IMG/VR virus record: IMGVR_UViG_2693429622_000002
Strand: one strand, 5' to 3'
Source of the DNA: a virus
Taxonomy: Duplodnaviria > Heunggongvirae > Uroviricota > Caudoviricetes
DNA: 29,630 nucleotides
Every line of letters begins with the position of its first letter. The first letter of the stretch is position 1. A program made the translations under genes and the position numbers. Shown piece by piece: positions 1,846 through 29,630 of this stretch. The notes below the pieces were generated by a model. That model saw only the letters and a program-made list of their open reading frames with translations, did no database searches and was not told where the DNA came from.

Positions 1846-5526
<3,681 letters not shown>

Positions 5527-5546
<20 letters not shown>

Positions 5547-6846
5547 TCTCCCGCATATTGCCAGCATGGCTTTTAATGAGCCGCTGATGCTTGAACCCGC
5601 CTATGCGCGGGTTTTCTTTTGTGCGCTTGCAGGCCAGCTTGGGATCAGCTGCCTGACGGATGCAGTATCCGGCGACAGCCTGACTGCCGGAGAGGCACCC
5701 GCGGCGCTGGCGTTATCCGGTGATGATGACGGACCACGACAGGCCCGCAGTTATCAGGTAATGAACGGCATCGCCGTGCTGCCGGTGTCCGGCACGCTGG
5801 TCAGCCGGACGCGGGCGCTGCAGCCGTACTCGGGGATGACCGGTTACAACGGCATTATCGCCCGTCTGCAACAGGCTGCCAGCGACCCGATGGTGGACGG
5901 CATTCTGCTCGATATGGACACACCGGGCGGAATGGTGGCGGGAGCATTTGACTGCGCTGACATCATCGCCCGTGTGCGTGACATAAAGCCGGTATGGGCG
6001 CTGGCCAATGACATGAACTGCAGCGCAGGTCAGCTGCTTGCCAGTGCCGCCTCCCGGCGTCTGGTCACGCAGACCGCCCGGACAGGCTCCATCGGCGTCA
6101 TGATGGCTCACAGTAATTACGGCGCTGCACTGGAGAAACAGGGCGTGGAAATCACGCTGATTTACAGCGGCAGCCATAAGGTGGATGGCAACCCCTACAG
6201 CCATCTACCGGATGATGTCCGGGAAACATTGCAGTCCCGGATGGATGCAACCCGCCGGATGTTTGCACAGAAGGTGTCGGCATATACCGGCCTGTCCGTG
6301 CAGGCTGTGCTGGATACCGAGGCTGCAGTGTACAGCGGTCAGGAGGCCATTGATGCCGGACTGGCTGATGAACTTGTTAACAGTACCGATGCGATCACCG
6401 TCATGCGTGATGCACTGGATGCACGTAAATCCCGTCTCTCAGGAGGGCGAATGACCAAAGAGACTCAATCAACAACTGTTTCAGCCACTGCTTCGCAGGC
6501 TGACGTTACTGGCGTGGTGCAAGCGACGGAGGGCGAGAACGCCAGCGCGGCGCAGCCGGACGTGAACGCGCAGATCACCGCAGCGGTTGCGGCAGAAAAC
6601 AGTCGCATTATGGGGATCCTCAACTGTGAGGAGGCTCACGGACGCGAAGAACAGGCACGCGTGCTGGCCGAAACCCCCGGTATGACCGTGGAAACGGCCC
6701 GCCGTATTCTGGCCGCAGCACCACAGAGTGCACAGACGCGCAGTGACACTGCGCTGGATCGTCTGATGCAGGGGGCACCGGCACCGCTGGCTGCAGGTAA
6801 CCCGGCATCTGATGCCGTTAACGATTTGCTGAACACACCAGTGTAA
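5527..6846 (+). CDS. C: Head maturation protease / scaffold C (439 aa), GTG start
   Basis: In-frame GTG at 5527 preceded by GGAGGAG; product begins (V)TAELRNLPHIASMAFNEPLMLEPAYARVFF as lambda gpC. The longer ORF from 5392 is a track artefact overlapping B. Confidence 0.9.
6241..6846 (+). CDS. nu3: Scaffolding protein Nu3, nested in-frame within the 3' part of C
   Basis: Internal ATG at 6241 (MDATRRMFAQKVSAYTGL) in the C frame, co-terminal with C, as in lambda. Confidence 0.8.
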   Translation: MDATRRMFAQKVSAYTGLSVQAVLDTEAAVYSGQEAIDAGLADELVNSTDAITVMRDALDARKSRLSGGRMTKETQSTTVSATASQADVTGVVQATEGENASAAQPDVNAQITAAVAAENSRIMGILNCEEAHGREEQARVLAETPGMTVETARRILAAAPQSAQTRSDTALDRLMQGAPAPLAAGNPASDAVNDLLNTPV

Positions 6847-25170: not shown

Positions 25171-25181
25171 GTGGGGTGAAT

Positions 25182-28100
25182 ATGGCAGTAAAGATTTCAG
25201 GTGTACTGAAAGACGGCACAGGAAAACCGGTACAGAACTGCACAATCCAGCTGAAAGCAAAACGTAACAGCACCACGGTGGTGGTGAACACGCTGGCCTC
25301 AGAAAATCCGGATGAAGCCGGGCGTTACAGCATGGACGTTGAGTACGGTCAGTACAGCGTTATTCTGTTGGTGGAAGGATTCCCGCCGTCACATGCCGGG
25401 ACCATCACCGTGTATGAAGATTCCCGACCCGGTACGCTGAATGATTTTCTCGGTGCCATGACGGAGGATGATGCCCGTCCGGAGGCACTGCGCCGTTTTG
25501 AGCTGATGGTGGAAGAGGTGGCGCGTAACGCGTCCGCGGTGGCACAGAACACGGCAGCCGCGAAGAAATCAGCCAGCGATGCCAGCACATCAGCCCGTGA
25601 GGCGGCAACCCATGCGACTGATGCTGCAGATTCAGCACGTGCAGCCAGCACGTCAGCCGGACAGGCCGCTTCGTCGGCTCAGTCAGCGTCTTCCAGCGCA
25701 GGAACGGCATCAACAAAGGCCACTGAAGCCTCAAAAAGTGCTGCCGCTGCAGAGTCCTCAAAAAGCGCGGCGGCTACCAGTGCCGGTGCGGCGAAAACGT
25801 TAGAAACGAATGCGGCAGCGTCACAACAATCAGCAGCCACTTCTGCATCCACCGCGACCACGAAAGCGTCAGAAGCTGCCACCTCAGCCCGGGATGCGTC
25901 GGCTTCAAAAGAGGCGGCAAAATCATCAGAAACGAACGCATCATCAAGCGCCAGTAGCGCAGCTTCCTCGGCGACGGCGGCTGCAAATTCTGCGAAGGCG
26001 GCCAAAACGTCCGAGACGAACGCCAGGTCTTCTGAAACGGCAGCGGGACAGAGTGCCTCAGCTGCGGCAGGCTCAAAAACAGCGGCTGCGTCGTCTGCCA
26101 GCGCCGCGTCAACAAGTGCCGGGCAGGCCTCAGCCAGTGCCACCGCCGCCGGAAAATCGGCAGAAAGCGCCGCATCATCCGCTTCAACAGCCACAACGAA
26201 GGCTGGCGAAGCCACTGAGCAGGCCACGGCAGCAGCGAGGTCAGCTTCCGCAGCGAAGACATCCGAAACGAACGCGAAAGCGTCGGAAACCCGTGCAGAA
26301 TCCTCAAAAACGGCTGCCGCATCGTCCGCCAGTTCGGCGGCGTCATCGGCATCATCGGCGTCTGCTTCAAAAGATGAGGCGACCAGACAGGCGTCAGCAG
26401 CGAAGGGCAGCGCCACGACGGCATCCACGAAGGCGACAGAGGCTGCTGGTAGTGCGACGGCAGCAGCTCAGAGCAAAAGTACGGCGGAATCTGCAGCAAC
26501 GCGCGCTGAGACAGCGGCAAAACGGGCAGAGGATATTGCATCCGCCGTGGCGCTTGAGGATGCGAGCACGACGAAAAAGGGGATAGTACAGCTCAGTAGT
26601 GCGACTAACAGCACTTCCGAGTCACTGGCGGCAACACCAAAAGCCGTTAAGGCCGCGTATGACCTGGCTAACGGGAAATACACCGCACAGGATGCAACGA
26701 CAGCACAGAAAGGGATAATCCAGCTAAGCAGCGCGACCAACAGCACGTCTGAAACGCTGGCGGCAACGCCAAAGGCAGTAAAAGCAGCCAATGACAATGC
26801 TGAGAAACGTCTGCAGAAAGATCAGAACGGTGCGGATATCCCTGGCAAAGACACCTTTACGAAAAATATTGGTGCCTGCCGTGCCTTCGGTGGGTCAGTA
26901 AGCACAACAACAGGAAACTGGACGACTGCACAGTTTATCGAGTGGCTGGATTCTCAGGGAGCATTTAACCATCCATACTGGATGTGCAAGGGTTCCTGGT
27001 CTTATGGCAATAATAAAATCATTACTGATACTGGCTGCGGTAATATTCATCTCGCCGGAGCTGTCATTGAAGTAATGGGGATAAAGTCAGCGATGACGAT
27101 CCGCATTACCACTCCGACCACATCCAGCGGTGGCGGAACAACCAACGCCCAGTTTACCTATATTAATCACGGAACAGATTATTCACCTGGCTGGCGAAGG
27201 GACTATAACTCCAGAAATAAGCCAACGGCATCAGAGATCGGGGCGCTACCGTCAGGTGGAACAGCAGTATCATCAGTTAATCTGGCTTCAAAAGGTCGGG
27301 TAGCCGCGCTGACAGACAATACGCAGGGGGCAGCAGGTCTTGAGTTATACGAGGTGTATAACAACGGATATCCAACAGCGTATGGAAATATCATTCACCT
27401 GAAAGGGATGACAGCCGTTGGCGAAGGTGAGTTACTCATCGGCTGGAGTGGTACAAGCGGTGCTCATGCTCCGGCATTTATTCGTTCACGACGGGATACG
27501 ACCGACGCAAACTGGTCGCCGTGGGCGCAGCTTTACACCTCGGCTCATCCTCCTGCAGAGTTTTATCCAGTCGGTGCACCAATCCCGTGGCCATCAGATA
27601 CCGTTCCGTCTGGTTATGCCCTGATGCAGGGGCAGACTTTTGACAAATCTGCTTACCCGAAACTTGCAGCCGCTTATCCGTCAGGCGTGATCCCTGATAT
27701 GCGTGGCTGGACGATTAAGGGCAAGCCCGCCAGTGGTCGTGCCGTATTGTCTCAGGAACAGGATGGCATTAAATCGCACACCCACAGCGCCAGCGCATCC
27801 AGTACGGATTTGGGGACGAAAACCACATCGTCGTTTGATTACGGCACTAAATCCACGAATAACACCGGGGCGCATACGCACAGTCTGAGCGGCTCTACAA
27901 GTTCAGCTGGGGCCCACCAACATAGTCAGACTGGGCCCAGAACGAATAGCGGGAGTCAACCTACTGGAATGTTTCCGGCAGGGAGTACTCAAGTTAGCGG
28001 GACTAATCAGGTTGGTATCAGTGGCTCATTAACCAGTGGCACCTCCCAATGGGTAGGTAAATCATCTTCAGAAGGAAACCATACACACTCACTGTCCGGC

Positions 28101-28265
28101 ACAGCAGCATCTGCGGGTGCACACGCGCATACTGTCGGTATTGGTGCTCATACGCACTCTGTTGCGATTGGTTCACATGGACACACCATCACCGTTAACG
28201 CTGCTGGTAACGCGGAAAACACCGTCAAAAACATCGCATTTAACTATATTGTGAGGCTCGCATAA
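25182..28265 (+). CDS. stf: Side tail fibre protein Stf (about 1027 aa from ATG 25182): N-terminal attachment domain, long Ala/Ser/Thr-rich repetitive shaft, C-terminal tip with repeated His-x-His motifs
   Basis: N-terminus [67 protein letters not shown] matches lambda Stf from memory; tip motifs [52 protein letters not shown] at about 27770-28195; GTG at 25176 is likely a track artefact. Confidence 0.9.
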
Positions 28266-28846
28266 TGGCATTCAGAATGAGTGAACAAGCACGGACCATA
28301 AAAATTTATAACCTGCTGGCCGGAACTAATGAATTTATTGGTGAAGGTGACGCATATATTCCGCCTCATACAGGTCTGCCTGCAAACAGTACCGATATTG
28401 CACCGCCAGATATTCCGGCTGGTTTCGTGGCTGTTTTCAACAGTGATGAGTCATCGTGGCATCTCGTTGAAGATCATCGGGGTAAAACGGTTTATGACGT
28501 GGCTTCCGGCGACGCGTTATTTATTTCTGAACTCGGCTCATTACCGGAAAATGTCACCTGGTTATCCCCGGAAGGGGAGTTTCAGAAGTGGAACGGCACA
28601 GCCTGGGTGAAGGATACGGAAGCAGAAAAACTGTTCCGGATCCGGGAGGCGGAAGAAACAAAAAACAGCCTGATGCAGGTAGCCAGTGAGCATATAGCGC
28701 CGCTTCAGGATGCTGTGGATCTGGAGATCGCAACGGAGAAAGAAACCTTGTTGCTGGAAGCTTGGAAAAAGTATCGGGTGTTGCTGAACCGTGTTGATAC
28801 ATCAACTGCACCGGATATTGAATGGCCAGTAGCACCTATAGGGTAA
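28265..28846 (+). CDS. tfa: Tail fibre assembly chaperone Tfa (193 aa)
   Basis: [54 protein letters not shown] matches lambda Tfa from memory; ATG overlaps the stf stop (TAATG). Confidence 0.9.
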
Positions 28847-28930
28847 ATTCGTAATGATTACCTAAATACGTTATTCTTTTGTTAAAAAAGTGATTTTGCT
28901 ATAGGTAGGGAGTATGTTCTTGGATTAAGA

Positions 28931-28962
28931 ATAAAAAATCGCCATGAAAGAGCTTCATGGCG
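28931..28962 (-). terminator. Intrinsic terminator oriented for leftward transcription (CGCCATGAA-AGAGC-TTCATGGCG, then T-run on the minus strand)
   Basis: Perfect 9-bp inverted repeat at 28940-28962; on the minus strand it is followed by ATTTTTTAT (plus 28931-28939). Implies a leftward transcript originating to the right. Confidence 0.5.
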
Positions 28963-29630
28963 AGTACATAAACGTACAAAATGTGATGAAAGTAGAGTGG
29001 CGTAAGCCACTATATTAAGATATGACAATAGCGAAGAAAAGTAAATAACATTTTATGGACGTTTAATTGTTAATTATAAAAACTAGAGTGCCCGATATTG
29101 TTTATCTTGCTTTAAAATAATGTACTCAAACCAAATTTTTGAGCTAAAAGCTCAAATAATATAAATGCAATAATAATGTTTAATAAGACAATTAGCTTGC
29201 TTTGTATTTTCATTTCGGAATACTGTTAAGTAACTTTGATGACCCTAACAATAGATCGGAATTTTCTTAGAGTCAATGGTCACTGTTTTTGCTTGCAAAG
29301 CAAATGTTTTGGTGGTTATAAGTCGTCTTAATATAGTCACGCATGCAACTTGTTCCATGCGGAGATTAAAGATTGGAATATAACGCGAAGATGGAATTAA
29401 ATTACATTTGCAATAATTAATTTATTATTACTCAATAATTACCGATATTATTATTGTAAATTAATCATTAGAATGCAAAAAGAAATGTAACGGCAAAATA
29501 AGAGGACGATAGCTGAGAAAAAAGCGTGCTTTCCCAATCTGGGGCAAATCACGTCTGAATGACACCTGAAAACAGGTGGTAGCCTCAAGAAGGCTGGTGA
29601 TGCTGCCAACTTACTGATTTAGTGTATGAT

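Follow-up and report, generated by a model that had tools for sequence, protein, structure and literature searches.

A conserved, unannotated YncL-like microprotein moron with its own terminator, predicted in AT-rich DNA behind tfa of a lambdoid prophage

Two kinds of described system are among the closest to the locus reported here. One is YncL (b4598), a stress-induced microprotein of 31 amino acids in the inner membrane of Escherichia coli K-12, whose gene lies between patD and ortT. YncL is reported to cause sublethal membrane depolarisation and nucleoid condensation when it is produced (PMC12542507). The other is the phage moron, a self-sufficient unit of deviant base composition that lies between conserved phage modules and is expressed in the lysogen from its own promoter to its own terminator, exemplified by bor and lom of lambda and by those of HK97-type phages. 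The locus lies in a stretch of 29,630 nucleotides recorded in IMG/VR as virus IMGVR_UViG_2693429622_000002 (Caudoviricetes), which was analysed at its full length and is called the window. Directly behind tfa, the gene for a tail fibre assembly protein, this DNA turns into an AT-rich island (28847-29595), and on the minus strand of the island there is an open reading frame (ORF) of 33 codons. I propose that it is a small accessory gene, read leftward, for a YncL-like microprotein, and that it is ended by its own hairpin terminator, a reading that I take to be probable though well short of secure.

The likeness to a moron lies in a deviant composition, a position at the end of the tail gene block, a strong terminator, a promoter-like site (a match to the consensus, no better than chance) and an orientation that reads against the late operon. 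The locus differs from classical morons in its far smaller product, and promoter activity and expression in the lysogen are only predicted for the phage unit. The likeness to YncL is one of length (33 versus 31 amino acids), of alignment, which is colinear from Met1, and of layout: the N-terminus is polar and has a single basic residue, a hydrophobic helix comes next, and near the C-terminus a basic residue is followed by F-G. Unlike yncL, the ORF sits behind tfa in a prophage and lacks the strong Shine-Dalgarno sequence of the chromosomal gene, and the 3' regions of the two are unrelated.

The island begins where tfa stops. Its GC content is 31.7% over 28847-29595 (30.5% over 28847-29560), as against 54.8% over 1-28846, and no ORF on either strand reaches 60 codons, the longest being 52 amino acids from start to stop and 58 codons from stop to stop. 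The initial annotation of the window, made from the letters alone, had remarked on this very low GC and on the absence of ORFs of 60 or more codons, and on both counts it was right. From this it judged the island to be a regulatory or small RNA (sRNA)-bearing cargo boundary, or a curved silencing target, rather than protein-coding DNA. The last part of that judgement does not survive, for the 33-codon ORF is conserved, YncL-like and under purifying selection.

The ORF occupies 29112-29213 on the minus strand, stop codon included, and its product, MKIQSKLIVLLNIIIAFILFELLAQKFGLSTLF, is predicted to be a single-pass membrane microprotein. The NCBIfam model for YncL (NF000537) finds it with E=1.3e-5, and two other protein variants of the ORF with E=3.7e-5 and 7.5e-5. 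By BLASTP it shares with YncL of K-12 39% identity and 64% similarity over 28 amino acids without a gap (E=2e-7). Because AT-rich DNA gives hydrophobic ORFs by composition alone, the peptide was shuffled 20000 times with its composition preserved. None of the 20000 shuffles attains the score of 60 with which the peptide aligns to YncL (mean 20.2, standard deviation 4.1, maximum 54), and every other reading-frame fragment of the island scores 28 or less against YncL.

The pattern of substitution points in the same direction. The ORF is intact in all aligned copies, and the copy that is ~77% identical keeps the same start and the same stop. Within the ORF, that copy carries 18 nucleotide differences, which bring five residue changes, all of them conservative. 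Substitutions across lineages fall on codon positions 3, 1 and 2 in the proportion 15:9:2, a small sample. The ratio of nonsynonymous to synonymous divergence (dN/dS) against the 77% copy lies between 0.09 (NG86) and 0.29 (LWL85), the lowest of the six frames, and the frame of the ORF is the only one of the six without stops in this comparison. Since the likeness to YncL exceeds what composition provides and is joined by selection of the coding kind, the ORF is, as far as sequence can tell, most likely a genuine gene for a small protein, related to yncL at best as a paralogue or xenologue.

Wider searches for relatives of the product returned little. The peptide turns up three times, without a name, in ~15 billion predicted proteins, and a HMMER search of 1.84 billion representative proteins returned only the identical peptide and one frameshift variant. 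A degenerate, back-translated pattern of the N-terminus met only chance ORFs in viral contigs, and tblastn against phages gave no hit even where the ORF is known to be present, presumably an effect of low-complexity masking. No paper was found that holds the peptide sequence, which is also absent from what could be seen of the supplement of a preprint on the Enterobacteriaceae microproteome. The PADLOC models of defence systems give no match to the peptide. Pseudogene remnants were also sought and rejected: 14 six-frame fragments of the island gave none against Pfam and PHROGs, and among four ORFs with start codons the only NCBIfam match was the one to YncL. The homology to a decayed protein gene that would have told against the initial annotation is thus missing in every frame.

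The ORF does not stand alone. It belongs to a conserved unit of 578 bp (28847-29424, here module A), the first of three modules in the island, followed by module B (29425-29510) and module C (29511-29595). Read on the minus strand, module A presents in order a promoter-like site, the 33-codon ORF, ~150 nt of 3' sequence and a terminator. The unit recurs directly behind tfa in other prophages, among them those at the ydfJ site and a prophage adjoining sitABCD. In 50 of 56 related loci, an 18-mer that marks it follows the stop of tfa at a distance of 121-122 nt, and this distance holds even where tfa shares only its last 47 residues. Among complete E. coli genomes the 3' block of the unit is present in 827 of 5426 and the ORF in 828 of 5426 (~15%), the two always together, with no RefSeq feature under the match among the matches listed. 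A lack of conservation, which the initial annotation named, together with a lack of transcription, as a ground for dismissing the island, is not what is found. In 185,579 species-representative genomes the 18-mer gave 8 chance matches in unrelated taxa and none in a relative of E. coli, so the unit seems to occur only in the accessory DNA of E. coli prophages.

The terminator lies at the left end of the unit, on the minus strand (28930-28963): a stem-loop at 28963-28939 followed by a U tract at 28938-28930. Its arms (28939-28948 and 28954-28963) form a perfect stem of 10 bp or, with one G-U, 11 pairs, of which 5 are G-C, around a 3-nt loop. The minus strand continues after the stem with TTTTTTATT, and the plus strand has no T run at the corresponding place, so the hairpin reads as a terminator in one direction only, just as the initial annotation had it. 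A stem of 10 bp arises in shuffles with P=0.02, the island holds 2 terminator-like sites where 0.4 +/- 0.6 are expected, and the stem survives in all variants, the ~77% copies included.

That annotation had pointed out this hairpin and two further palindromes, and all three exist as perfect hairpins, with slightly corrected limits (28939-28963, 29138-29156 and 29288-29304). Hairpins of this kind (perfect stem of at least 7 bp) are commoner than in 1000 dinucleotide shuffles, 5 against 0.72 expected (P=0.008), the 5 counts being three sites of which two are counted at two loop sizes. A regulatory role for the other two palindromes did not hold up, since both are broken in diverged copies. The first (8 bp, 29138-29145/29149-29156) lies inside the ORF, over the codons F-E-L-L-A-Q-K, has no U tract behind it, and has acquired 2 mismatches in a diverged type (L009) and 1 in another (R12). 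The second (7 bp, 29288-29294/29298-29304), situated upstream of the promoter-like site, is not preserved in the L009 type. Both are probably incidental.

The candidate promoter resembles those of sigma-70, TTGACT-17-TATTGT on the minus strand at 29276-29248, with 9 of 12 consensus positions and ~35 nt between it and the ATG; its -35 element is invariant in all variants. It may be the promoter that serves the ORF. The part of the unit upstream of it (29277-29424) holds the 7-bp palindrome and a conserved stretch at 29330-29369, and its ORFs are broken by indels in the L009 type. From the orientation of the terminator, the initial annotation had deduced leftward transcription that comes from beyond the window. 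Leftward transcription within the island remains the most plausible view. An origin beyond the window is not supported, in that what lies to the right is IS1 and an AraC-family gene read rightward, with a second terminator-like hairpin of the minus strand (29556-29523, in module C) in between, and a promoter-like site is available inside. A leftward transcript that entered from the right would meet that hairpin first.

An alternative view is that the island has no function at all, that it is an AT-rich spacer or recombination linker, probably silenced by H-NS, whose ORF and hairpins are by-products of composition and recent ancestry, and that the terminator merely insulates the late genes from leftward read-through from the attachment (att) side. 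The copies of module A are in keeping with this, being mostly 95-99% identical (the most diverged type is ~77% identical overall), as are the chance-only matches of the 18-mer outside E. coli, the presence of mosaic junctions, and the loss of two of the three hairpins in diverged copies. Binding of H-NS to an island of 31.7% GC is likely, as predicted on general grounds. However, the H-NS nucleation motif occurs once (with at most 2 mismatches) where 2.3 occurrences are expected, no excess beyond composition, and the island shows neither phasing of A-tracts nor a periodicity of 10-11 bp, and the suggestion of curved DNA finds no support. By-products of composition would not be expected to align with YncL better than all 20000 shuffles do, nor to show codon-position bias and low dN/dS in the frame of the ORF only, and a spacer sits uneasily with a position and orientation that are fixed behind several types of tfa and at several chromosomal sites. 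I regard this view as quite unlikely.

There are, nonetheless, real points that weigh against a protein-coding gene. Hydrophobic ORFs are what AT-rich DNA yields from composition alone (PMC11188072). The protein variants score 25.0 (the present one), 23.5 and 22.5 bits against NF000537, under the curated YncL cutoff of 35 bits and far from the 68.6 bits of YncL of K-12 itself, which sets the phage peptide apart from the YncL family proper. An ORF of 33 codons is not rare at 22-32% GC. No Shine-Dalgarno-like motif precedes the ATG, either in TATTCCGAAATG / TTAACAGTATTCCGAA, the sequence leading up to the ATG, or in the version of the L009 type. The diversity of the ORF is small, with four protein variants that represent essentially three independent lineages. 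The promoter candidate has a weaker -10 element, TATCGT, in the L009 type, and promoter-like sites are no commoner in the island than in shuffles (5 found, 4.3 expected). Finally, between diverged types the ORF is 82% identical and the 3' block 94-95%, so that an RNA block rather than the peptide may be the main element under selection.

This last point leads to another explanation, that the product of the locus is an Hfq-type sRNA from 28930-29013, or perhaps to ~29066, made from its own start or by processing, with the ORF either incidental or one half of a dual-function locus. The block 28930-29013 is the most conserved of the island, keeping its identity of 94-95% between types that are ~77% alike overall. 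It combines the terminator with a 34-nt stretch and a small hairpin at 28997-29010, the latter two lying in the 3' untranslated region (UTR) of the small gene (28964-29111, minus strand). The layout, a small hairpin, a possible seed and a terminator with a U tail, is that of 3' UTR-derived and prophage Hfq-dependent sRNAs (CpxQ, SroC and MicL; DicF, IpeX, AgvB/AsxR, Esr41 and KilS), and the block likewise follows a short coding sequence within prophage DNA. The 3' region folds strongly (z=-5.2 against shuffles); the 34-nt stretch is unpaired in the fold from the promoter and paired when the 3' region is folded by itself. One change within the small hairpin, from G to A at 29006 in the R12 type, leaves a U-G wobble on the minus strand and a C-A mismatch on the plus strand, so that it is tolerated only on the former.

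Unlike the sRNAs named, the block matches no Rfam family. Scans with Rfam 15, by E-value over 28200-29630 and by gathering threshold over the whole window, gave no significant match in the island, and the earlier suggestion of an sRNA thus receives no support as far as known families go; the conserved 3' block may all the same give rise to an sRNA. Such weak scores as were obtained all come from sRNAs whose alignment runs from end to end on the minus strand (MicC, Aar and Esr41), with MicC at 22.8 bits of the 90 required (E=1.3) and Esr41 at 15.6 of 102, far under threshold. An sRNA would also be without a canonical promoter upstream, since the TATAAT at 29079-29074 has no -35 element. The U tract is interrupted in the diverged types, and diversity among the variants is too low for covariation. 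The high identity of the block may instead reflect recombination: one mosaic copy (L043, aligned over ~28960-29000) resembles the 77% type in its left part and the 90% type in its right part, and its junction falls inside the block.

The unpaired 3' stretch found no target in the mRNA of yncL of K-12 or in the phage window above the level of shuffles, except for the trivial antisense match to itself, and no report was found in the literature of an sRNA downstream of tfa. The signs of coding selection on the ORF remain to be explained in any case. I conclude that the 3' block is a possible 3' UTR-derived sRNA whose layout fits the Hfq type, and that an sRNA as the actual product of the locus is unlikely. 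The boldest reading is a dual-function locus that would give a depolarising, YncL-like microprotein and release its 3' end as a trans-acting sRNA that reprograms host genes; this I would call improbable.

The only Rfam family to pass its threshold in the window was IS009 (RF02111), with 218 bits at 28608-28806 on the plus strand, wholly inside the coding sequence of tfa. The match covers the conserved C-terminal part of tfa, the sole part common to the differing types of tfa that precede the island, and this family of "sRNA" may simply model conserved coding DNA.

The size and hydrophobicity of the peptide recall a third possibility, a module like those of type I toxin-antitoxin systems, in which the peptide would be a membrane toxin of the Hok, TisB or ZorO class and its translation would be curbed by the 3' UTR folding back or by an antisense RNA from the plus strand. 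Short hydrophobic peptides with weak translation signals are typical of type I toxins (Hok, TisB, ZorO, Ldr, Ibs and ShoB), the missing Shine-Dalgarno sequence would suit a translation kept within tight limits, and the homologue of the phage peptide, YncL, depolarises membranes. In the minimum-energy fold the start region pairs with 29043-29023, and an RNA begun at a promoter-like site on the plus strand (29022-29051) would be complementary to the 3' half of the ORF. However, start region and 3' UTR form duplexes of modest energy (-11 to -16 kcal/mol), with no consistent advantage of cognate over non-cognate pairs. In the centroid fold the AU-rich leader of the ORF, start region included, is unpaired. 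The supposed antisense RNA has no terminator, and no antitoxin RNA was identified. Sequence similarity to type I toxins is lacking, nothing in PADLOC, Pfam or PHROGs matches, and YncL is itself described as a sublethal stress protein rather than as a toxin with an antitoxin. A toxin-antitoxin module is therefore very unlikely.

A perfect inverted repeat of 12 bp, ACTATATTAAGA / TCTTAATATAGT (29009-29020 and 29326-29337; 19 of 25 positions if extended), brackets the cassette of promoter-like site and ORF, with ~0.1 such repeats expected by chance. It was considered as the border of a mobile or invertible cassette and rejected, as it is degraded by three mismatches in the diverged type.

How might a gene for a YncL-like microprotein work in this place? 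In the lysogen, the unit would be transcribed leftward from its own promoter at 29276-29248 as a short mRNA, whose AU-rich and unstructured leader would permit some translation of the 33-residue peptide. The peptide may then insert into the inner membrane of the lysogen and, by analogy with YncL, mildly lower the membrane potential or alter stress tolerance. The hairpin terminator, to judge from its signature, would end the transcript and prevent it from running antisense into tfa. Late transcripts that pass through tfa in the lytic cycle would be antisense to the unit. As an additional role, the 3' block might stabilise the mRNA or yield an sRNA.

The neighbourhood places the unit among accessory genes. 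To the left are the side tail fibre gene stf (25176-28265, with the Pfam domains phage_tail_N and Collar) and tfa (28265-28846, plus strand; Pfam Caudo_TAP PF02413, E=4.6e-44), which forms the left border of the island. The right edge of the island is at 29595. From 29596 to the end of the window at 29630, where it is cut, runs the left inverted repeat of IS1 on the plus strand, GGTGATGCTGCCAACTTACTGATTTAGTGTATGAT, annotated as IS1A in two related genomes (L001 and L002). Complete E. coli chromosomes contain near-identical DNA, and in them the order is J, lom, stf, tfa, the island, IS1, a gene for an AraC-family regulator, insertion sequence (IS) fragments and ybhB-bioA. The host element is, on this sequence evidence, a lambdoid prophage at the lambda attachment site, and the island is an accessory ("moron") region between tfa, the last tail gene, and the attachment-site end of the prophage. 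The initial annotation's placement of a cargo boundary here was well judged. Within the side tail fibre gene, in its repeat region rich in Ala, Ser and Thr (25600-26800), long overlapping ORFs of 109-258 amino acids appear in further frames and on the other strand. They are artefacts that a repetitive, GC-rich composition produces and do not represent genes.

The island occurs without IS1 in three phages that have been sequenced, ev099, mEp332 and PhiR70_1. In ev099 it runs on for 550 bp more, including a 3' fragment of tRNA-Ser(CGA), and is followed by the AraC-family gene and then by a true lambda-type sib, attP and int. The 550 bp (5750-6299 in L004, that is, ev099) are missing in the IS1-bearing genomes (IS1 lies at 6750-7517 in L001), from which it follows that the junction with IS1 is also the end point of a deletion and not a simple insertion. 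The main cargo between island and attachment site is the gene for the AraC-family regulator, flanked by IS fragments (7724-8467 in L001, 6506-7249 in L004). In the uninterrupted phages ~1.5 kb of unannotated DNA extends from the tfa stop to the AraC start, and it is AT-rich next to the AraC gene.

Homology to the prophage copies at the ydfJ site and next to sit ends near 29424. Beyond that point, module B (29425-29510) is a lineage-specific AT-rich linker of 24% GC, found only in phages of the ev099/mEp332 type and in prophages like the present one. Module C (29511-29595, minus strand, truncated by IS1) comprises the last 85 nt of the island and has another history. Copies of it lie close to the right ends of many lambdoid prophages that otherwise differ, beside uspF, zinT and ompW. 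Its minus strand offers two small hairpins, then a longer imperfect hairpin (29556-29523) and a T run (29522-29517), with a fold of z=-1.8; a linked pair of substitutions in the long hairpin turns a G-A mismatch into an A-U pair. The left edge of the module lies just past the T run in three different sequence contexts, which fits the boundary of a transcription unit. In ev099 and in an unrelated prophage (L006), module C is contiguous with ~130 nt of AT-rich DNA. In ev099 the 3' fragment of tRNA-Ser comes next, and the stretch matches attR of the phage SerU-LTIIb.

The nearest described counterpart of module C is sib/tI of lambda, a terminator of the b region that lies beside attP and acts in retroregulation, which module C resembles in its terminator-like hairpin, in its direction relative to int and in its place at the outer edge of an att arm. 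It differs in having no sequence similarity to sib and in being separated from any int gene by cargo and IS1. In ev099 the hairpin and T run lie ~280-350 nt from the att relic at tRNA-Ser, compared with a lambda-type criterion of ~200 nt. That module C might be sib of lambda itself was rejected by direct comparison of the sequences, and ev099 carries a lambda sib separately, beside attP. My reading of module C is that it represents the outer, distal tip of a serU-type att arm, ended by a terminator and left here as a relic that cargo and IS1 have cut off.

Two observations on such arms may be set beside this. In ev099 (L004, ~5750-5935) a 3' fragment of serU tRNA-Ser(CGA) with its AT-rich arm lies in the middle of the accessory region, and the phage itself uses the lambda attP; the fragment looks like a relic att site, perhaps captured along with the neighbouring AraC-family gene. 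In the prophage that adjoins uspF (L006), module C and the att arm lie between imperfect direct repeats of ~90 nt (~4860-4950 and ~5212-5300), the left copy of which is annotated as a "capsid protein" of 55 amino acids, an annotation that looks doubtful.

Taken as a whole, the locus is best described as a conserved YncL-like microprotein moron that lacks annotation and has a terminator of its own, beside a relic att-arm terminator and IS1. Should the ORF turn out to be silent, what remains is accessory filler of the ordinary kind, with a terminator. One published observation may bear on a phage-borne gene of this kind. In a list of interactions obtained by RIL-seq (PMC8175672), the mRNA of chromosomal yncL is a target of KilS, an sRNA from the kilR region of the Rac prophage, and this link between a prophage RNA and YncL is possibly relevant to a phage gene that resembles yncL.

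If the gene is real, lambdoid prophages of about one in seven complete E. coli genomes carry a YncL-like microprotein. Expressed in lysogens, the phage-borne copy could bear on how lysogens tolerate stress or respond to antimicrobial peptides, on persistence or on superinfection. In its conserved 3' end the unit offers a well-delimited candidate prophage sRNA, and if the dual-function locus were true, ~15% of E. coli strains would carry an unannotated, phage-borne switch acting on membrane energetics, dormancy or phage exclusion. More generally, the island offers a test case for small-protein genes hidden in the AT-rich "intergenic" DNA of phages.

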